Counted from the stretch's first letter, positions 32,702 through 44,891 are shown. The stretch is 64,000 bases of DNA from Longimicrobiales bacterium (GCA_965238005.1 OZ250165.1:3648001-3712000); one strand, 5' to 3'. A program made the numbers and translations. Notes: a model not told the origin generated them from the sequence alone.

Positions 32702-32774
<73 letters not shown>

Positions 32775-33030
32775 CGGCGGTAAAAATAGCCGGTAGCCGA
32801 GCGAACCTCCACGGCCGCGACACGTTCCTCAGAACATGAGGAGCACCGAGAGTGGGGTGAACCCCCAGTCGTTCTCGCGTATTCGGCCTGCAGCCGAAGC
32901 TCCCGGGCTCACTGCCGAACCCAGAGGCCTGTTGCGGAGCCACTCCAATCCCTCCATTACCAATGCGTATCCCATATCCTCCCGAGGGACCCAGCACCCG
33001 GCGGGCGTCATCGCCTGCGAGGAGAGAACA

Positions 33031-34218
33031 GTGATCGAGACTGACAGCCAGAGGCAGAAGACCAGCGCCGGTGCCTAGGAGACCGCGGTCCAGGATCGCT
33101 ACGCCGACGCCGCACAGGCCCAGGCCGCGGCCCTCTGTTGTCCCGTGGACTACGATTCGAAGTACCTGGAGGTCATCCCGGACGAGGTCATCGAACGGGA
33201 CTACGGCTGCGGCGATCCCAGCCGCTACCTCAGGGAGGGTGAGACCGTCCTCGACCTGGGCAGCGGCACGGGCAAGATCTGTTTCATCGCGTCGCAAGTG
33301 GTGGGAGAAACGGGCAAGGTCATCGGCGTCGACATGACCCCCGAGATGCTGGAGGTCGCCCGTCGAAACGCGCCTGTCGTCGCTGAGCGGATCGGCTACG
33401 CCAACGTGGAGTTCCGGCGGGGCCGCATCCAGGATCTCGCCCTCGATCTGGAGCGGCTGGAGGAGCGCCTGGGCGAGCATCCGGTGTCGACCACCGAGGG
33501 CTACCTCGAGCTCGAGCGGATGACGTCGGACCTTCGGCTTCTGGAGCCCCTGGTCCCCGACGAGTCGGTCGATGTCGTCGTCTCGAACTGCGTCCTGAAC
33601 CTCGTGGCGACGGATCAGAAGCAGAACCTCTTCAGGGAGATCCACCGCATTCTGAGGACGGGCGGACGGGCGGTCATCTCGGACATCGTCTCCGACGAGC
33701 CGGTCCCCGAGGAGCTCCAGATGGACGCCGAGCTCTGGAGCGGGTGTGTCTCGGGGGCCCTCATCGAGGAGGGATTCCTCGAGGCGTTCGAAGAGGTCGG
33801 CTTCTACGGGATCCGTGTCCGGGAGCGCCAGGCCGAGCCCTGGCAGACGGTGAACGGAATCGAGTTCCGCTCGGTGACCGTGGAGGCTTTCAAGGGCAAG
33901 GAGGGCCCCTGCTGGGAGAGGATGCAGGCGGTGGTCTACCGGGGCCCCTTCAAGGAAGTGCTCGACGATGACGATCATCGCATGGAGCGAGGGAAGCGAT
34001 ACGCGGTGTGCGACAAGACCTTCCGCATCTACGGCCGGGAGCCGTACCGGGAGCACTTCGACTTCATCGAGCCGTTGGTCGAGATCCCGTTGGAAGAGGC
34101 GGAGCCCTTCGACTGCACCCGCACGACGGCGCGGCATCCCCGGGAGTCCAAGGGGATGGACTACGACGTGACCACCGACCCTCAGGGGGCTTGCTGTGAG
34201 CCAGGCGACTGCTGCTGA
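33031..34218 (+). CDS. ArsM-like SAM-dependent methyltransferase, in-frame TAG at 33076-33078
   Basis: GGAG RBS + GTG; AVQDRY..LCCP, YGCGDP, LDLGSGTG, SNCVLNL, WSGCVSGA, C-terminal CC..CC. Confidence 0.8.
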
Positions 34219-35179
34219 CGCTAAATCCGGTGGCGCCGTGAGCTCGAATGCCGCGCAGGCCTCGGGCGCCACGGCGGCGCCGAGCTTGCAGACGAACGCA
34301 TCCCGGTCGGAGACCGAGAGCGCGGCTCCCGCGGTCGACCTCCGGTCTTTGGACACGCTGTGGTTCCAGGTGGGAGGCACCCTCTGCAACCTCACGTGCA
34401 GCCACTGTTTCATCTCCTGCTCCCCCACGAACCACACCCACGAGCTCTTGAGCCTGGAGACGGTTCGCTCGTACCTCGACGAGGCCGTGGAGTTGGGCGT
34501 GAAGGAGTACTACTTCACGGGGGGAGAGCCCTTTATCAACCGTGACATGGAGGCCATCCTCGCCGCGACGCTCGAGGTCGGTCCCGCTACGGTCCTGACC
34601 AACGGCCTGCTCCTCGACGGGGAACGGTGCGGTCGGCTGGCCGCGTTGGCCGACGCTTCCGAGTACTCCCTCGATCTGCGCATCTCCCTCGATGGCTACA
34701 CAGCCGAGTCGAACGATCCCATTCGGGGCGAGGGGACGTTCGAGCGGATCCTCGTGGGCGCCCTCAACGCGGCGGAGGCCGGGCTCAACCCGGTCGTCAC
34801 CGTCACCGACGTCCACGAGGGCAACTCCAGCGACCAGGGGCGCACCCGCTTCCTGGAGCTCCTGGCCGGGCGAGGCATCAGACGGCCCAGGCTCAAGGTC
34901 CTGCCGGTCTTCCGCCTCGGAGCGGAGGCCGAGCGGTCCGGCCCGTACGAGAGCTGGCAGAAGCTCTCGGCGACGGACACTCCAGAGGACGGGTGGAGCC
35001 ACCTTCAGTGCTCCTCGTGTCGCATGGTCACCGACCAGGGCGTCTGGGTATGCCCCATCCTGGTAAACGAGCCCTCGGGTCGGATGGGGGAGCGCCTGGC
35101 CGACACCCTCACCGACTTTCCCCTGGACCACCAGGCGTGCTGGACCTGCCACGTCTACGGGGTGAGCTGCCGGACATGA
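34196..35179 (+). CDS. Radical SAM enzyme with Cys-rich C-terminus
   Basis: CNLTCSHC (CxxxCxxC), TGGEPF, TNG, SLDG; C-terminal CSSCR..CP..CWTC..C; start may be 34238. Confidence 0.9.
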   Translation: MSQATAADAKSGGAVSSNAAQASGATAAPSLQTNASRSETESAAPAVDLRSLDTLWFQVGGTLCNLTCSHCFISCSPTNHTHELLSLETVRSYLDEAVELGVKEYYFTGGEPFINRDMEAILAATLEVGPATVLTNGLLLDGERCGRLAALADASEYSLDLRISLDGYTAESNDPIRGEGTFERILVGALNAAEAGLNPVVTVTDVHEGNSSDQGRTRFLELLAGRGIRRPRLKVLPVFRLGAEAERSGPYESWQKLSATDTPEDGWSHLQCSSCRMVTDQGVWVCPILVNEPSGRMGERLADTLTDFPLDHQACWTCHVYGVSCRT

Positions 35180-36129
35180 CCAACGCCCACAAGGGAATGG
35201 CCACGTGGGGTGAGCGTCTGGTTCCCCTGGAGGACTTCCGAGTCGCGACCACGCGCTTCGGTCGGACCCTCTCCGAGGAGGGCCGTCGGTCTGCCGTGGA
35301 GGAGTACCTGACCTCGGCCGACGATGCGACCCCCGTAGAGGGCTCATACGGGCGGATCGCCGTCTTCGGAGGGGTCTACAACAACCACTTCGGCCTCCAA
35401 GCCCTCCTGGAGGACGCCCGCCGACGTGGGGCCGAGGCCGTGTATTGTCTCGGGGATCTGGGAGGCTTCGGGCCGAACCCGGAAGCCATCTGGCCCCTCC
35501 TGGCATCAGGCGATGTGCGGTCCATCCAGGGGAACTACGAGCAGTCCCTGGCCGCCGACCGGGGGGACTGCAACTGCGGATACACCGACCCGCGGGACAA
35601 CCACTTCGCCGCCCTTTCGTACGGCTACACCGAGCGTCGCTGCTCTCCCGAGTTCAAAGCGTACATGGGGGAGCTCCCCAACAGGCGCCGGGTCGCCGTC
35701 GGGGAGGCAGAGCTGCTCCTCGTCCACGGGTCTCCAAGGCAGGTCAACGAGTTCCTCTTCGCGTCGACCTCGTCCACGCCCTACCTGGAGATATTGTGTG
35801 ACGAGAACAGGTGCGACGGGATTCTCTGCACCCACACAGGTCTCCAGTGGCACCGGCGTCTCCCTTCGGGTCGGGACGTGGTGAACGTGGGCGTCATCGG
35901 ACGACCGGCCAACGACGGCCGAACCAACGTCCGGTACGCCGTCCTCTCGGCGGAGAACGGCAGACTCCACGTCGAGCTCGTCCCGCTCGAGTACGATCAC
36001 GAGTCCCTGGCGGCCGAGATGCGCCGAGAGGAGCTTCCGGAGGAGTTCGTCGAGACGATCCTCAGCGGATGGTGGACCACCTGCCTCGAGATTCTGCCGG
36101 CCAAGGAGCGGGCGGCCTCGAGGTTTTAG
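35176..36129 (+). CDS. Atypical calcineurin-like metallophosphoesterase
   Basis: LGDLGGFGP, QGNYE, CNCGY, VHGSP, NVGVIGRP; ATGA-coupled to the radical SAM gene. Confidence 0.82.
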   Translation: MTNAHKGMATWGERLVPLEDFRVATTRFGRTLSEEGRRSAVEEYLTSADDATPVEGSYGRIAVFGGVYNNHFGLQALLEDARRRGAEAVYCLGDLGGFGPNPEAIWPLLASGDVRSIQGNYEQSLAADRGDCNCGYTDPRDNHFAALSYGYTERRCSPEFKAYMGELPNRRRVAVGEAELLLVHGSPRQVNEFLFASTSSTPYLEILCDENRCDGILCTHTGLQWHRRLPSGRDVVNVGVIGRPANDGRTNVRYAVLSAENGRLHVELVPLEYDHESLAAEMRREELPEEFVETILSGWWTTCLEILPAKERAASRF

Positions 36130-36140
36130 GACGTACGTAT

Positions 36141-37391
36141 ATGACGGCATCGAAGCTACGTATCGCCATCCTGGGGAGCGGTCCCACCGGCCTGGAGGCC
36201 GCCCTGGCCGCGGCCGTCGCCGGATACCCATTCACGGTTTACGAGGCGGCGGCGCAGGCGGCGGCCCACGTGCGCGACTGGGGCCACGTCCGGCTCTTCA
36301 CCTCCTGGGACCTCAACGTCTCGGCCCGGATGCGCCAGGCGCTGGACGAGGCCGGCGAGTCTGTCCCCGAAGGGACCGAGTACCCTACGGGAGCGGAGCT
36401 GGTAGAGAAGGCACTCGATCCCGTCAGCGCTCTCTCGGCCCCCTCGGGGCACATCCAGTACAGGGTTCGCGTAGAGCGCCTGGGCCGCACCGGCCTGCTC
36501 AAGCATGAGGAGATCGGCACCGGCGAGCGCGGCCGACACGCCTTCCGACTCCTCCTCCGGGACGACTCCGGCCGGGAGTGGACCGAGGAGGCCGACGTGG
36601 TGATCGACTGCACCGGCAACACCGAGCCCAACGCCCTGGGCGACGGAGGCATCCCCGCCCCAGGTGAAGGGCGCGCATCGGAGGCCATCAGCCATGAGAT
36701 TCCGGACGTATCGGGCAACCCGGAGACCTGGGCGGGACGCACGGTGCTCGTGGTGGGCGCTGGGCACTCGGCCACGACTGCCGTCGTGGACCTCGTCAAG
36801 CTGGCCGAAAAGTACCCCGGGACCGAAGTCGCCTGGGCCATGCGACACGAAGTCCCGGAGCCCGATGTGGACGATCCGCTGGAGGAGCGGGCCGCTCTTC
36901 TCGAGAAGGGAGCCGCGCTGGCCGCCCATCCCCCATCGTGCCTCCGGGTTCGCACCGGGGTCGTGGTCGACGCCTTGACGGTGGGGGAGGGCCGGACCGT
37001 GAGAGAGGCCACCGCACCTGCCACGCCCGGCGGGTCTCCCCGAGTCGGGGCCAAACTGCGGACCCTCGACGGCCAGGTGGAGTGCCTCGACATCGACCGT
37101 ATCCTGGCGCTCACGGGGAAGGTCGGAGATCACCTCCTGTACCGGCAGCTCCAGGTGCACGAGTGCTGGGCGACGCAGGGTCCCATGAAGCTCGCGGCCG
37201 CCCTTCTGGCCCAAAGCGGCGGTAGCGGGGACTGCCTGGATCAGACAAGCCTGGGAGCCGAGACCCTCGTGCACCCCGAGCCCGGGATCTTCATCCTCGG
37301 AATCAAATCCTACGGACGTCGGAGCGACTTCCTGATGAGGGTGGGCTGGGAGCAGGTGGACGAGGTCTTCGGGCTACTGGCCGGACGCTGA
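36141..37391 (+). CDS. FAD/NAD(P)-dependent oxidoreductase (flavin monooxygenase-like, ars-associated type)
   Basis: GSGPTG, WGHVRLF, GAGHSA, GIKSYGR..FLMRVGWEQV. Confidence 0.8.
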   Translation: MTASKLRIAILGSGPTGLEAALAAAVAGYPFTVYEAAAQAAAHVRDWGHVRLFTSWDLNVSARMRQALDEAGESVPEGTEYPTGAELVEKALDPVSALSAPSGHIQYRVRVERLGRTGLLKHEEIGTGERGRHAFRLLLRDDSGREWTEEADVVIDCTGNTEPNALGDGGIPAPGEGRASEAISHEIPDVSGNPETWAGRTVLVVGAGHSATTAVVDLVKLAEKYPGTEVAWAMRHEVPEPDVDDPLEERAALLEKGAALAAHPPSCLRVRTGVVVDALTVGEGRTVREATAPATPGGSPRVGAKLRTLDGQVECLDIDRILALTGKVGDHLLYRQLQVHECWATQGPMKLAAALLAQSGGSGDCLDQTSLGAETLVHPEPGIFILGIKSYGRRSDFLMRVGWEQVDEVFGLLAGR

Positions 37392-37756: not shown

Positions 37757-39076
37757 ATGATGCGAAGACACGCTGTTCCCCCCGCAGCCGTCGCATTCGC
37801 ACTGGCATTCCTGGGTTGCGAGCAGACGGCCACAGGTCCCGATCTCCTGCGAGATCTCGGACCGTCATTGGCCATCGAGGGAGTGTCCGAGTTCCCCACG
37901 ACCTCGGTTCTCGGGGGCACGTGCATCGACTCCGGATCGCCCGTGTCGTGGTGGCCCGGAGAGGACGACTTCAACGACGTGGTCGGCGAGAATCATATCG
38001 TCCGGGATAACGGAGTTGAGTTCACGGCGGGGGTCGTCGGTCAGGGATTCAGGATCAGCCCGTTCACCTCGGTGGGTCAGTCGTTCATGGAGATCGACGA
38101 CTCACCCGATCTCCAGCCCACGAACTTCACGATCGACCTGTGGGCTCAACGCTTCGGCCAGGGTCAGAACTTTGACGAATTCGGCAACATACTCGTCCAG
38201 AAGGCGATCGACGACGATGATCTGAGCGCCGGAGTGTCGTACCTCATCTCTTGGAATGACGTTAACAAAATCGTGGCGTTGCTCTCCTTTTCTGTTGGCG
38301 CTCCGGTCATACTCGAGGGGACCTCGGCGCATGGGTTTGCCGACCCAGATGCCGACCCTGCCGACCCGTTCGTTCACGTGGCCCTCACGTACGACGGCAC
38401 CACGGCCAGGCTCTACGTCAACGGCACCGTCGAAGACTACGACGCACCCGGGCGTTCCGTCGCCTACGGTGAAGGGTCGATGGTCGTCGGAGCGACCTTT
38501 GAGGCCGCTCGGACCAGATTTCCAAGATCCCCGGACGGCATCATCGACGAATTGGAGATCTTCGACTACGCTCTCACCGACGATCAGATCCGGGAGATCT
38601 ACGAGACGGAGGGCGCCTGCAAGCTACGATACGAGCCGTCCCCCGAGGTTGACATCGACATCAAGCCGGGCAGCGAAGACAACCCGATCAACCTCGGCGC
38701 CGGTGGCGGAAAGAGCGGCAAGGGCAAGGGCAAGGGCAAGGGCAAGGGGAAGGGCAACGCCAACATCCCGGTCGCCATTCTGACCACCAACGACTTTGAC
38801 GCGTCCACGGTCGACGTGTCCACCGTGACGCTGGGCGACGACGACGACGACACGGTCGGCGTGATCGTCAAGAAGAACGACACGCTCCAGGCGGCGCTCG
38901 AGGACGTGGACGACGACGGCGACCTTGATCTGCTGATGCACTTCAGCATCGCCGATCTGGTGGCCAGCGAAGATCTCGACGAGTCCACCACCCAGCTCTG
39001 TGTGAACGGGTCGAGCCTCGACCCCGATGCCATCCATGGATGCGACATGGTGGCCATCGTCGGGGGCGGCGCGTAG
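37757..39076 (+). CDS. LamG/concanavalin-like surface lipoprotein with C-terminal IDIKPG domain and Ca-binding motif
   Basis: Lipobox FLGC; HVALTYDG..LYVNG, GIIDELEIF; IDIKPGS..IPVAIL; DVDDDGDLD. Confidence 0.75.
   Translation: MMRRHAVPPAAVAFALAFLGCEQTATGPDLLRDLGPSLAIEGVSEFPTTSVLGGTCIDSGSPVSWWPGEDDFNDVVGENHIVRDNGVEFTAGVVGQGFRISPFTSVGQSFMEIDDSPDLQPTNFTIDLWAQRFGQGQNFDEFGNILVQKAIDDDDLSAGVSYLISWNDVNKIVALLSFSVGAPVILEGTSAHGFADPDADPADPFVHVALTYDGTTARLYVNGTVEDYDAPGRSVAYGEGSMVVGATFEAARTRFPRSPDGIIDELEIFDYALTDDQIREIYETEGACKLRYEPSPEVDIDIKPGSEDNPINLGAGGGKSGKGKGKGKGKGKGNANIPVAILTTNDFDASTVDVSTVTLGDDDDDTVGVIVKKNDTLQAALEDVDDDGDLDLLMHFSIADLVASEDLDESTTQLCVNGSSLDPDAIHGCDMVAIVGGGA
38717..38758 (+). repeat. (GGCAAG)n hexamer repeat encoding a GK run
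   Basis: Five perfect GGCAAG units plus two variants. Confidence 0.9.
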
Positions 39077-39115
39077 TAGCTCCAGATACAACGAAGCCCC
39101 CCCCCCCACCGTATC

Positions 39116-39151
39116 GGGGCGGTCTCCCAGCGGAGGCCGCCCCATCGTTTT
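39116..39151 (+). terminator. Intrinsic terminator
   Basis: GGGGCGGTCTCC-CAGC-GGAGGCCGCCCC followed by ATCGTTTT. Confidence 0.65.
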
Positions 39152-39589
39152 CTCGGATCCGCCGAACCGCTAGCTACCGGTCGTTCTCCAAGACTGGATC
39201 CACCACGAGACAATCTTTTCCAATCTCAAGAGGACGTCATTCCGTCCAACTCCCAAACGTACTGCGGGGTAATCCGCGGACACCGCTCAGGAGTCCCAGA
39301 GGGTAAAAAGGCGACTCATTGACGTTGGCAACACCATCGGATAAGAAGAAATGAAGAAATCGCGCGGAGATTCCAGTGTTTCCGCGGGGTGTCGGTCCGT
39401 GAGGCAGATGCCGCTCACGCGGCTCCTACAAAGGGAGTAGGTCGGAGAGAAATACCCGCAAGAAAGTTGTTGCGGGGCCCGAAGACCGTTGGTAACGTTT
39501 AGATAGGGAGTATGCCTCCGCTCCCCGGGTCGGCGGGGTACGTCGGCCAAGAAAAACACTTTTCGACCTCAGACTCTCCAGGAGGCGAC

Positions 39590-41281
39590 ATGCCCCGGAA
39601 GTACCGTCTTCAAGCCGTTTCCATCGTACTCGCGCTGGCGGTATTGGGGTGTGAGCAGAGTGTTACAGATGTCGTTGATTGGACGGCTGAGGCGAACCAT
39701 CCCTCTATCACGGCACTGTTGTCGCCGCTCGCGACAGGTACCGGGTTCATAGATGCGACCTTCGCAACAGACTTTAACCCTGTCGATGGAGACTATCTCT
39801 CGGGCCTTATCACAGTCGGTGGAACTTTCACTGTAGCGGCAGGTGACGTCGTCTACGTGGACGGATCAGTGGAAATCGTGGCTGCAGATGTGCTCATCGC
39901 CGGTACGCTTGACGCGAGCGGTGCGGGACCGGCCGGCGGCGCGGTGCCTTCGCTCCTCGCGGCGGGGAAGCCGGGATTCGGGACGGGCGGCGGTGCCGGC
40001 TCTGCGAGCAACTTCTTCGAAGGCCCGGGAGGCGGCGGGGGGGGATACGGCGGGGCAGGCGGTGGAGGAGGGACGACCCCTAGCACCGGGGCCCAAGCGG
40101 CCGGCGGCGCATCATACGGAGCCACGAATCCCCCCGGCATCCTCATGGGCTCGGGCGGCGGCAGCGCCAGCAGCAACTTCTTCAACCCCGGTGGAGCGGG
40201 TGGAGATGGCGGTGGCGCGATCACGATCGTCGCGACGGACATATCGGTGACCGGGATCGGAGTCATCTCGGTATCGGGCGCCGACGGCCTGGGGAGCACC
40301 GGCGGCGGACTGCCGGTGGGCGGCGGTGGTGGTGGATCGGGCGGCGGAATCTGGTTGGACGGTGCCCTGGACATCTCCGGGTCGCTCCTCGCGGTTGGAG
40401 GCGTGGGAGGGCCCGTAACGAGCAACCAACCTGGCGTCGCGACGGCAGGCGGAGGGGGCGGGGGCGGCCGGATCAAGCTCTCGGGCTGCGGCGTCATCGA
40501 CGCTGGTGCGATCGTCCTGTCCACCGGCGGCAGCCCGGGCGGGAACTCCGTCGGAAATGGCGTGAGTCTTCCCCAGCCCGGCGCGGACGGCACCACGCCC
40601 ACCGACCAAGACGATCCGCTCGAGGCCTGCGGTACGACTTCGACTTCCGCATCTTTCCTGATCATCGACGAGGAGAGCATCGGCAAAGGCAGCCCGCCGC
40701 ACTCCTTCGACGAGATGGACGTGAGCGAACACATCGCCGACATCGGGGTGCGGACCCAGCTCCCCTTCTTTGAGAGCAACGTTGGTAGTACGATCACCCT
40801 GCATACGGGCGAAGTCGGCGATGAGGGATGGTTCGCGTTAAAGACGATCCCGGACTCCTGGAATGCGGCCGGCCCGACCCCTGACGGGCTGCGGAATTAT
40901 GTGGGCAATCCGGTCGGTCCAGGCTTGGGCTCTGGGGGTGATCCAGAGGCCCTGCTGGACAAGATTCCGAACGTCACTCCCTTGCGGGCGATGGGGCTCA
41001 AGCAGTTGGTGGGGCAGCGGGTCTGCGCCGTGGTCTACAAGAGCGACGTCTCCATCAACTATGACCCACTGGACGGGAGTCTCAAGGGAGACAACCTGGG
41101 AACGGTGGCGTTTGAGGTCCTATCCGTGACAAGGTTGGACGGGTTCTCCTCGTCGTCCCTGCCGCAGGCAGAAATCGAGATCTTGGACGCCAACGACGTC
41201 TGCGAGGGGTCGCTGACTCTCTTCACGGATGCTCCTGAGCCGATCTCCTCCTCGGAACCCTTTGACGTGGACCCGTCCTAG
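39590..41281 (+). CDS. Glycine-rich surface lipoprotein with unassigned C-terminal domain
   Basis: AGGAGG RBS; lipobox VLGC; repeated GGGGGSGG/GGAI/GGRI motifs. Confidence 0.7.
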   Translation: MPRKYRLQAVSIVLALAVLGCEQSVTDVVDWTAEANHPSITALLSPLATGTGFIDATFATDFNPVDGDYLSGLITVGGTFTVAAGDVVYVDGSVEIVAADVLIAGTLDASGAGPAGGAVPSLLAAGKPGFGTGGGAGSASNFFEGPGGGGGGYGGAGGGGGTTPSTGAQAAGGASYGATNPPGILMGSGGGSASSNFFNPGGAGGDGGGAITIVATDISVTGIGVISVSGADGLGSTGGGLPVGGGGGGSGGGIWLDGALDISGSLLAVGGVGGPVTSNQPGVATAGGGGGGGRIKLSGCGVIDAGAIVLSTGGSPGGNSVGNGVSLPQPGADGTTPTDQDDPLEACGTTSTSASFLIIDEESIGKGSPPHSFDEMDVSEHIADIGVRTQLPFFESNVGSTITLHTGEVGDEGWFALKTIPDSWNAAGPTPDGLRNYVGNPVGPGLGSGGDPEALLDKIPNVTPLRAMGLKQLVGQRVCAVVYKSDVSINYDPLDGSLKGDNLGTVAFEVLSVTRLDGFSSSSLPQAEIEILDANDVCEGSLTLFTDAPEPISSSEPFDVDPS

Positions 41282-43880: not shown

Positions 43881-44891
43881 TTACTCCGACTTCTCCTCCC
43901 CGTCCTCTTCGGCCTCGGCATCTGCCTCGGCGGCGGGCTCCTCCTCGGCTTCCGCCTCGGGGGCTTCCTCTTCGGTAGCCTCGGGCTCCGACTCCTCTTC
44001 GGCGGCGGGCTCTTCCTCGGCTTCCGCCTTGGGGGCCTCCTCTTCGGCAGCTTCGGCCTCGGGCTCCGACTCCTCTTCGGCGGCGGGCTCTTCCTCGGCT
44101 TCCGCCTCGGGGGCTTCCTCTTCGGCAGCCTCGGCCTCGGGCTCCGACTCCTCCTCGGCGGCCGGCTCCTCCTCGGACTCGGCTGCGGGGGCTTCCTCTT
44201 CGGCAGCCTCGGCCTCGGGCTCCGACTCCTCCTCGGCGGCCGGCTCCTCCTCGGACTCGGCTGCGGGGGCTTCCTCTTCGGCAGCTTCGGCCTCGGGCTC
44301 CGACTCCTCTTCGGCGGCGGGCTCTTCCTCGGCTTCCGCCGCGGGGGCCTCCTCTTCGGTAGCCTCGGGCTCCGACTCCTCTTCGGCGGCGGGCTCCTCC
44401 TCGGCTTCCGCCTCGGGAGCCTCCTCTTCGGCAGCTTCGGCCTCGGGTGCGTCGTCTTCAGCAGCCTCGACGTCGGCCTCGGCGGCGTCGAGCTCGGCAG
44501 CCGCCGCAGTCGCGGCCTCCTGGGCCACCTCGGCTGCCGCCGCCGCCTCGCGGGCCTTCGCCTCTGCTTTCCGGCGCTCCGCAAGGGCAGCGGTCTTCAG
44601 AGCCTTCACCTCCTCCGGATCGAGCTCGCCGAGAGCCACGGAAGTATCACCACCCTTGCGGGCCTTGTTCAGCAGCGTTCGGACGGTGTCGGTGGGCTCG
44701 GCACCCTTGGCGATCCACGCGTCGGCCTTCTCGACGTCCACCACGAGGCGGGCCGGGCTCGTCAGAGGCTTGTAGTACCCAAGCGTCTCGACGAAACGGC
44801 CATCTCGCGGAGCTGCGGAGTCGGCCACCACGATGCGGAAGTGGGCCTGCTTCTTACGGCCCATGCGACGAAGTCGGATTTTTACGGCCAT
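43881..44891 (-). CDS. rpsP: 30S ribosomal protein S16 with long acidic C-terminal tail
   Basis: [30 protein letters not shown]. Confidence 0.95.
43925..44430 (-). repeat. 72/78-bp tandem repeat (about 6.5 units) in the rpsP tail
   Basis: Units EEEAP(EAEA/AAES)[12 protein letters not shown](EAEAA/EAT). Confidence 0.9.

Follow-up and report, generated by a model that had tools for sequence, protein, structure and literature searches.

What do four tightly packed, co-oriented genes do in a Longimicrobiales bacterium in which the first of them is broken? The genes lie on the + strand at positions 33031-37391 of a 64,000-nucleotide stretch of its genome (GCA_965238005.1 OZ250165.1:3648001-3712000, hereafter the window), according to a reading of the open reading frames of the window. 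They encode an ArsM-type methyltransferase, an enzyme of the radical S-adenosylmethionine (SAM) type, a metallophosphoesterase-fold protein (gene 3) and a flavin-dependent oxidoreductase (gene 4). To judge from sequence, they appear to be a form, so far undescribed, of the machinery with which bacteria attach arsenic to carbon. Comparison of loci showed that the fixed core of this system is the pair formed by the radical SAM enzyme and gene 3, a putative relative of the arsenate reductase Car1; the flavoprotein usually joins them, and ArsM is optional. A preliminary description, drawn from the DNA sequence alone, had proposed an organoarsenical pathway in which ArsM took part; its observation is partly confirmed and its interpretation partly supported by what follows.

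The window genome (G000) is a single contig of 4.84 Mb, 96% complete. Five Longimicrobiales genomes carry the operon between the same flanks: G000, its congeners G001 and G002, L102 and L029. Contigs, not reads, of four public sequencing runs (X1-X4) were also compared, X1 being possibly the source and X3 coming from another study.

The radical SAM enzyme and its Car1-like partner

Loci encoding relatives of gene 3 were collected as the best 80 of at least 598 candidates, mostly from Acidobacteriota; 56 of them are full-length. A radical SAM gene is present in 76 of the 80, a flavoprotein gene in 68 and a methyltransferase gene in 35. The conservation of the operon is beyond chance; its genes occur together in many genomes, and other lineages have them as gene fusions. 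Among representatives of 50% clusters, the radical SAM enzyme is fused to ArsM in three cases (Brocadiales, Deferribacter thermophilus and one further sequence), to the flavoprotein in two and to TIGR04282 in one. An apparent ArsM-radical SAM fusion at locus L099, without the usual CC tail and frameshift-like, was not counted.

The model of gene 3 has a metallophosphoesterase fold and matched SapH, 3RQZ, 2GJU and 1NNW. Its sequence is 28-33% identical to those of ars-operon proteins, with a GNY motif common to both, and its C132-x-C134 motif aligns with C74-x-C76 of an Adhaeribacter ars-operon protein. Cysteines numbered C74 and C76 are reported to be essential in Car1, the arsenate reductase of Rufibacter tibetensis (PMC12124457), the link to Car1 being made through the Adhaeribacter protein. 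Among the relatives opened or aligned, the five annotated plasmid proteins of ordinary type (from Pontibacter, Adhaeribacter, Paraclostridium and Hymenobacter) all come from ars operons. D94, N120, the GNY and CxC motifs, H184 and H220 are kept in 97 of 97 members of the gene 3 family. The same 97 display GG-x-Y and THTG-type motifs, i.e., they have lost the D-x-H of motif I (replaced by GGVYNN in gene 3) and the last histidine (THTG). Following the textbook assignment, we take the lost residues to be those that bind one metal of the pair. Members also have a C-terminal WWTTC303LE...KER tail, with WWTTCLE present in 93 of the 97. For gene 3, kinship with Car1-type As(V) reductases is a better reading than the product-remodelling phosphoesterase initially suggested.

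The radical SAM enzyme, 327 amino acids long, carries its CX3CX2C motif at residues 64, 68 and 71 and five further cysteines (272, 286, 315, 318 and 325) in a truncated SPASM-like C-terminus; the latter are 99-100% conserved in 95 sequences. ArsS also ends in five invariant cysteines, in a similar order. The first ~45 codons form a variable Ala/Ser-rich leader, which is ~87 nt longer in the window (34246-34334) than in both congeners and some contigs. The best NCBIfam match is NF049973 (Rv1681 family), with 111 bits for a cut-off of 380, and no ArsL model is found among the 25 best NCBIfam matches. An AlphaFold model with a mean predicted local distance difference test (pLDDT) of 64 and a poorly modelled C-terminus led to generic radical SAM matches only. 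A phylogeny in the form of a quick tree groups the family with a sister clade from Alphaproteobacteria (support 91). By sequence, the enzyme belongs to a family separate from ArsS and ArsL, differing from ArsL in size, motif position and the lack of an RCCLKC tail, and such likeness to ArsS as there is rests on context. The family ranges over Gemmatimonadota, Acidobacteriota and Planctomycetota, with the sister clade in Alphaproteobacteria and Deferribacter. A second, near-identical radical SAM copy without gene 3 lies among transposase-like genes in genome G007 (L017 5866-6837).

Structure prediction points to a physical link between the two core proteins. ESMFold2 scored the pair at 0.89 in each of three runs, the best of three controls reaching 0.00; the mark applied is reached by 116 of 157 solved pairs versus 2 of 215 mismatched pairs, a calibration that is rough here, with our own alignments used. 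Contacts agree at 98% or more, and the partner pLDDT is 94. Gene 3 contributes residues 195-206 and the family tail 304-317, adjoining C303, to the predicted interface; the radical SAM enzyme contributes, among others, its invariant segments GVKE and GP together with the residue that precedes the last cysteine. Sequence searches of the PDB returned only distant relatives for either protein, so that a score derived from a memorised structure is less likely. The radical SAM enzyme and gene 3 are predicted to form a heterocomplex via the family-specific C-terminal tail of gene 3. Both frames are intact in all five same-site relatives, with a ratio of nonsynonymous to synonymous substitution rates (dN/dS) of 0.07-0.30 against all four relatives of the window genome.

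The flavoprotein is 31-35% identical, over its full length, to flavin adenine dinucleotide (FAD) proteins of three plasmids, whose genes adjoin arsN or are flanked by arsR and arsK. Its C365 aligns with the cysteine of their HSCG motif and KSYGR is common to both; it has an extra cysteine (HEC345) and no Cys-rich tail. These plasmid proteins are presumably ArsV, as in an arsRVK operon. ArsV itself is described as a flavin monooxygenase giving resistance to methylarsenite (MAs(III)). ArsO (NF040505) is not among the 16 families matched at E up to 0.01. The flavoprotein gene of G001 has a 1-nt frameshift, unconfirmed in public contigs.

The interrupted methyltransferase gene

Analysis of the methyltransferase with hidden Markov models placed NF040538 (arsinothricin ArsM) first, at 357 bits below a cut-off of 500, and PRK11873 second, at 212 bits for a cut-off of 263. 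The As-binding cysteines are at full-length positions 36/37, 60, 187 and 239, and the protein ends in a CC..CC tail; the cysteine-rich motifs initially quoted for the first three genes were all recovered. C60, C187 and C239 have aligned counterparts in 4FR0, an arsenic methyltransferase of solved structure, the spacing of 24/127/52 is identical to that of BgArsM (cysteines 30/54/181/233; PMC8552651), and none of the 40 full-length homologues compared lacks any of the four positions. By these four conserved cysteines the methyltransferase is of the ArsM type, as first proposed, with a putative arsenic-methylating activity. The same long ArsM has a true ArsS as its neighbour on a Cupriavidus plasmid and in genome G100, and is therefore a common partner of several radical SAM families. 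Two Staphylococcus plasmids (H1 and H2) carry a long ArsM-type gene, 55% identical.

The preliminary description overlooked an in-frame stop at codon 16 of the methyltransferase (TAG, 33076-33078). Position 33076 is a C (codon CAG) in both congeners. Contigs of run X1 have mainly T (C at a depth of 9 of 28.2), those of X3, from the second study, have no C (depth 10.4), those of X4 have C only and those of X2 do not span the position. TAG is probably a real allele, because public contigs of X1 and of X3 carry it; an assembly error is unlikely given the T allele in contigs, the only material compared, of two studies. Amber read-through or pyrrolysine insertion was rejected, since no tRNA with a CTA anticodon is found among the 68 tRNAs of the genome and PylS has no match over the cut-off in it; the two TAG lesions, one in Gln codon 16 of the window gene and the other in a Tyr codon of L102, do not share a residue, which also contradicts read-through. 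The next in-frame start is GTG 33145, and a restart there would lose the first cysteine pair.

The gene is broken or deleted in four of the five same-site relatives. Only the G002 frame is intact: G001 has a 4-nt deletion, found in run X4 too, L102 has its TAG at another codon, and in L029 the gene is deleted, the upstream stretch on the tRNA side being followed ~440 nt on by the radical SAM gene. Among the X1 contigs, one passes over 267 nt of this gene. With a dN/dS of 0.07-0.18 versus relatives, no relaxed selection was seen; the methyltransferase was therefore under selection until recently, and its lesions are recent. The operon ArsM of the window strain is most likely a recent pseudogene, and the other three operon genes are intact. 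The initial proposal needs correcting on this point: ArsM is the dispensable member and is broken in the window genome.

The window genome encodes other ArsM-like proteins. An ordinary ArsM (325 bits, over the cut-off) adjoins a MarR/ArsR-like regulator at G000:C1:391251-392693, and its second conserved cysteine is a serine (GLGSGNP); judging by ArsM mutants, such an enzyme may methylate MAs(III) only. Two further ArsM-fold genes have an in-frame TGA (G000:C1:3644252-3644968 and 1137398-1138663), and the genome has tRNA-Sec.

Genomic context and distribution

Queries for ArsR, ArsC, Acr3, ArsK and ArsS gave no match in the 56 full-length loci, in keeping with the biosynthetic rather than plain resistance context first put forward. 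TIGR04282 matched in 21 of the 56, and a phosphate-type ABC importer was found in 10, with ArsM in 9 of these 10 versus 19 of the 46 loci without importer.

In a sample of 151 Gemmatimonadota genomes, each at least 90% complete, the radical SAM enzyme occurs in 19 and ArsS in 15, with no overlap. TIGR04282 is present in 55 genomes, including all 19 with the radical SAM enzyme and all 15 with ArsS, and the TIGR04282/TIGR04283 transferases share genomes with the radical SAM enzyme even when unlinked. Close orthologues of gene 3 were found in 13 genomes, all with the radical SAM enzyme, and those of the flavoprotein in 12, 11 of them with it. The long ArsM was detected in five genomes, two of which have the radical SAM enzyme. 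No ArsM of either kind was detectable in 11 of the 19 radical SAM genomes (three genera), PRK11873 matching in 113 of the 132 other genomes; five ArsM-less single-contig genomes, rechecked at E 1e-15, gave nothing above 71 bits, and all five have TIGR04283. The window genome has an intact MerA-like/VTT-DUF547/TIGR04283-04282 cassette at C1 2.20 Mb, and neither ArsS nor Acr3 was found in it. Among 80 loci of the alphaproteobacterial sister clade, five have TIGR04282 and five a sodium:solute symporter. A Roseomonas cluster combines the radical SAM gene, TIGR04282, a phosphonate-type ABC importer, a gene 3 homologue and a SelD-N-like flavoprotein, with no ArsM. Deferribacter thermophilus, with its ArsM fusion, and Roseomonas haemaphysalidis 546, whose cluster lacks ArsM, are carriers available in culture.

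A SPASM-ArsM fusion of ~830 amino acids was observed in a cassette of TIGR04282/04283, MerA-like, VTT and DUF547 genes in at least three Gemmatimonadota genomes, and the fusion is found in a fourth; this cassette accepts several unrelated radical SAM enzymes.

The close packing first reported for the four genes is present. The methyltransferase starts with a GTG located 6 nt 3' of AGGAG (33020-33024). The GTG of the radical SAM gene, a start of uncertain position, overlaps the methyltransferase end by 23 nt, gene 3 is coupled to the radical SAM gene via ATGA, and a gap of 11 nt separates gene 3 from the flavoprotein gene. A promoter scan gave no signal exceeding those of shuffled sequences.

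A type III polyketide synthase (PKS)-like gene lies divergently beside the operon in 41 of the 80 loci (many Thermoanaerobaculia loci among L030-L104, on the opposite strand, upstream), in a neighbourhood that, by sequence reading, also holds acyl-AMP ligase, acyl carrier protein and methyltransferase-like genes. This arrangement is probably synteny, and a link with arsenolipids may exist. Elsewhere in the window, positions 37757-41281 encode two secreted-looking proteins, one with a LamG domain and a GKGKGK run, the other Gly-rich with no family match, and at positions 43881-44891 lies a gene resembling that of ribosomal protein S16, extended by a long tail of Ala/Glu-rich tandem repeats. The genome also has two dense, integrated-element-like tRNA arrays of 17 and 18 genes (G000:C1:1035994-1037821 and 4451264-4455247).

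Table. Features of the operon region (window positions) and loci of the SPASM-ArsM fusion
Feature	Position	Strand	Basis or remark
tRNA-Lys(TTT)	32702..32774	-	divergent, 5' of operon
Arsinothricin-type (long) ArsM methyltransferase, TAG-interrupted at codon 16	33031..34218	+	HMM NF040538, Cys alignment
Premature TAG, methyltransferase frame	33076..33078	+	CAG (Gln) in G001 and G002
Radical SAM enzyme, family without name	34196..35179	+	CX3CX2C and five C-terminal Cys
Putative Car1-family metallophosphoesterase-fold protein (gene 3)	35176..36129	+	fold, CxC, family-specific tail
Flavin-dependent oxidoreductase (gene 4)	36141..37391	+	two Rossmann motifs
SPASM-ArsM fusion loci	L242 3929-6415, L243, L244 8496-10994, L245		

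Proposed chemistry and relation to known systems

We propose, with a confidence evenly balanced between acceptance and doubt, that the operon encodes a reductase-coupled substitute for ArsS, which would make a C-As bond on trivalent arsenic or methylarsenic, possibly salvaged from methylarsenates. The CxC protein would reduce a pentavalent arsenical (arsenate, or methyl- or dimethylarsenate) to the trivalent form, the loss of one metal site perhaps suiting a substrate with fewer oxygens, and would hand it to the bound radical SAM enzyme. [quoted passage not shown] Methyl groups could come from the operon ArsM, from a separate ArsM or from the environment, and the flavoprotein might set the As(III)/As(V) state or recycle cysteines. 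ArsS is reported to adenosylate dimethylarsenite (DMAs(III)), forming DDMAA, and ArsL to act on trivalent arsenic only (PMC13598754); pentavalent substrates therefore need prior reduction, which a bound cysteine reductase would supply. A more specific proposal, which we regard as doubtful, is one of salvage: a one-metal, Cys-based reductase of methylarsenate (MAs(V)) or dimethylarsenate (DMAs(V)), coupled to a third C-As-forming radical SAM family, would let ArsM-less bacteria build arsenosugar-type compounds from the methylarsenic of others. Bacterial methylarsenate reduction is not known to have a gene assigned to it; if true, the salvage proposal would provide one, together with a hidden route to complex organoarsenicals.

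Several observations weigh against a substitute for ArsS. The ArsS model TIGR04167 gives the radical SAM enzyme 50 bits for a cut-off of 300. HHalign aligned it with ArsS at 98.9% probability, yet the C-terminal profile of the family scores ArsS at 0.6 bits at most versus 5.9 for a generic SPASM domain; because this control gives ArsS no score advantage, the HHalign value was taken to reflect the shared barrel, and the case for paralogy is weakened. In the quick tree, ArsS is on a long, poorly placed branch of its own. From the initial view of an enzyme related to but distinct from ArsS, the distinctness stands; the relatedness is limited to context and an equal number (five) of C-terminal cysteines. 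Moreover, 21 of the 55 TIGR04282 genomes have neither the radical SAM enzyme nor ArsS at the thresholds used, and at least four of these carry a third type, the SPASM-ArsM fusion; the TIGR04282 cassette is therefore not specific, and "arsenosugar" is a database label for TIGR04282/04283. In six genomes, all from a single genus, the radical SAM enzyme is present and gene 3 is not, the co-occurrence P values are too strong, the genomes being akin and not independent, and in the sister clade from Alphaproteobacteria the gene mostly stands alone (80 loci, many short, with ArsM in none and a gene 3 homologue in seven). Finally, the 28 full-length loci lacking ArsM were followed up in 26 genomes, loci L048 and L058, with no radical SAM gene, being left out: 24 of the 26 lack the long ArsM genome-wide and 22 have an ordinary ArsM elsewhere. 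Because of these 22, simple redundancy may account for most losses of ArsM from the operon, and methylation-free operation as a general rule was rejected.

Rival readings differ in the order of the steps, in the substrate or in the direction of the pathway. An order like that of ArsL appears unlikely: the radical SAM enzyme would alkylate inorganic As(III) coming from the reductase (with a 5'-deoxyadenosyl, aminocarboxypropyl or other group), the long ArsM would methylate afterwards, and ArsM-less strains would make an unmethylated compound. This would account for the optional ArsM and for the 11 of 19 genomes without it, and it fits a methyltransferase of BgArsM type by best model and cysteine spacing, BgArsM being proposed to methylate hydroxyarsinothricin (AST-OH) after ArsL (PMC8552651), as well as Car1 being itself an arsenate reductase (PMC12124457). 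However, the radical SAM enzyme has no RCCLKC tail, bears its motif at 64-71 of 327 amino acids rather than 194-201 of 428 as in ArsL, and has no ArsL model among its 25 best matches; the long ArsM partners ArsS too, and the operon has no ArsQ-like exporter. We think it distinctly improbable that the core pair acts on a phosphonate, on selenium or antimony species or on a sugar-nucleotide, with ArsM a frequent but secondary neighbour. The Roseomonas cluster, with its phosphonate-type importer and SelD-N-like flavoprotein and no ArsM, would suit a non-arsenic substrate, as would a Rv1681-like relative in Miltoncostaea that adjoins selA/selD and a DUF2064 gene and is the protein scored highest by the radical SAM N-terminal profile, and the absence of ArsM from all 80 alpha-type loci; three separate ArsM fusions, the presence in ars operons of those annotated plasmid relatives that match genes 3 and 4 best among the ones opened, and the independent indication of arsenic by three of the four genes argue for arsenic.

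A catabolic or detoxifying role, in which imported organoarsenates (arsenosugars, methylarsenates) would be reduced, radical chemistry would cleave C-As or C-H bonds in them and an ArsV-like flavoprotein would re-oxidise the toxic trivalent products, seems very unlikely. It draws on the ArsM-independence of single-contig genomes, on the sodium:solute symporter or phosphonate-type importers adjoining the pair, on the resemblance of the flavoprotein to those beside arsK/arsN and on reports that bacterial DMAs(V) reduction comes before demethylation in soil cultures. Fusion and coupling with ArsM speak for synthesis instead, TIGR04282/04283 are transferases by annotation, and toxic arsenite would be released, yet the genome has no Acr3 and the 56 loci no efflux gene. 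Least credible, and close to dismissal in our view, is that the whole locus is decaying and non-working in the window lineage, a reading that concerns this copy and not the family. The methyltransferase lesions in four of five relatives, the X1 contig skipping part of that gene and the flavoprotein frameshift of G001 would agree with such decay; the radical SAM gene and gene 3, intact in all five relatives and with low dN/dS, and the intact transferase cassette contradict it.

No description of this module was found in the literature searched, most subscription journals lying outside that search, and in the literature covered two radical SAM families, ArsS and ArsL, are named as forming C-As bonds. 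Given the predicted complex, the altered metal site and the single-contig genomes devoid of ArsM, a claim of guilt by association becomes open to test, with respect both to the arsenical that is reduced and to the group attached to it. Compared with the Rv1681 family, the best NCBIfam match, of which a relative lies beside DUF2064 and AhpD-like genes, the radical SAM enzyme remains far below the cut-off (111 of 380 bits), and the Miltoncostaea member lacks the C-terminal cysteines; literature listings searched for this family returned no functional study. Like ArsV-type monooxygenases, through its presumed ars-operon relatives, the flavoprotein has the shared cysteine and the KSYGR motif at 31-35% identity, and it differs from these presumed relatives by its extra HEC345 cysteine and the lack of a Cys-rich tail. 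Gene 3 shares with Car1 of R. tibetensis (PMC12124457) the metallophosphoesterase fold, the CxC at an equivalent position and the GNY motif. Unlike Car1, as seen via the ars-operon members, it is without D-x-H and the last histidine, has the extra N-terminal segment and the WWTTCLE tail, and is coupled to a radical SAM gene rather than to arsR/acr3.

The ArsQML arsinothricin cluster resembles the operon by its long ArsM, with the same cysteine spacing, and by a radical SAM gene directly downstream. The operon ArsM is nevertheless below the equivalog cut-off, ArsQ is missing, and the radical SAM enzyme has neither the size nor the motif position of ArsL (~430 amino acids, CX3CX2C near residue 194), nor its RCCLKC tail, described as arsenic-binding. 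With the ArsM + ArsS arsenosugar pathway, the operon shares an ArsM-type partner, the same TIGR04282/TIGR04283 in the same genomes and a radical SAM enzyme ending in five conserved cysteines. This enzyme is 24% identical to ArsS and matches its model at 50 of 300 bits; a coupled Car1-like protein and a flavoprotein were found in none of eight ArsS loci, and ArsM is optional in the operon family. ArsS and the operon radical SAM enzyme are mutually exclusive in the 151-genome sample, where the latter is as common as ArsS (19 versus 15 genomes) and appears to take its place beside the same transferases, so that gene surveys based on arsS only would miss it.

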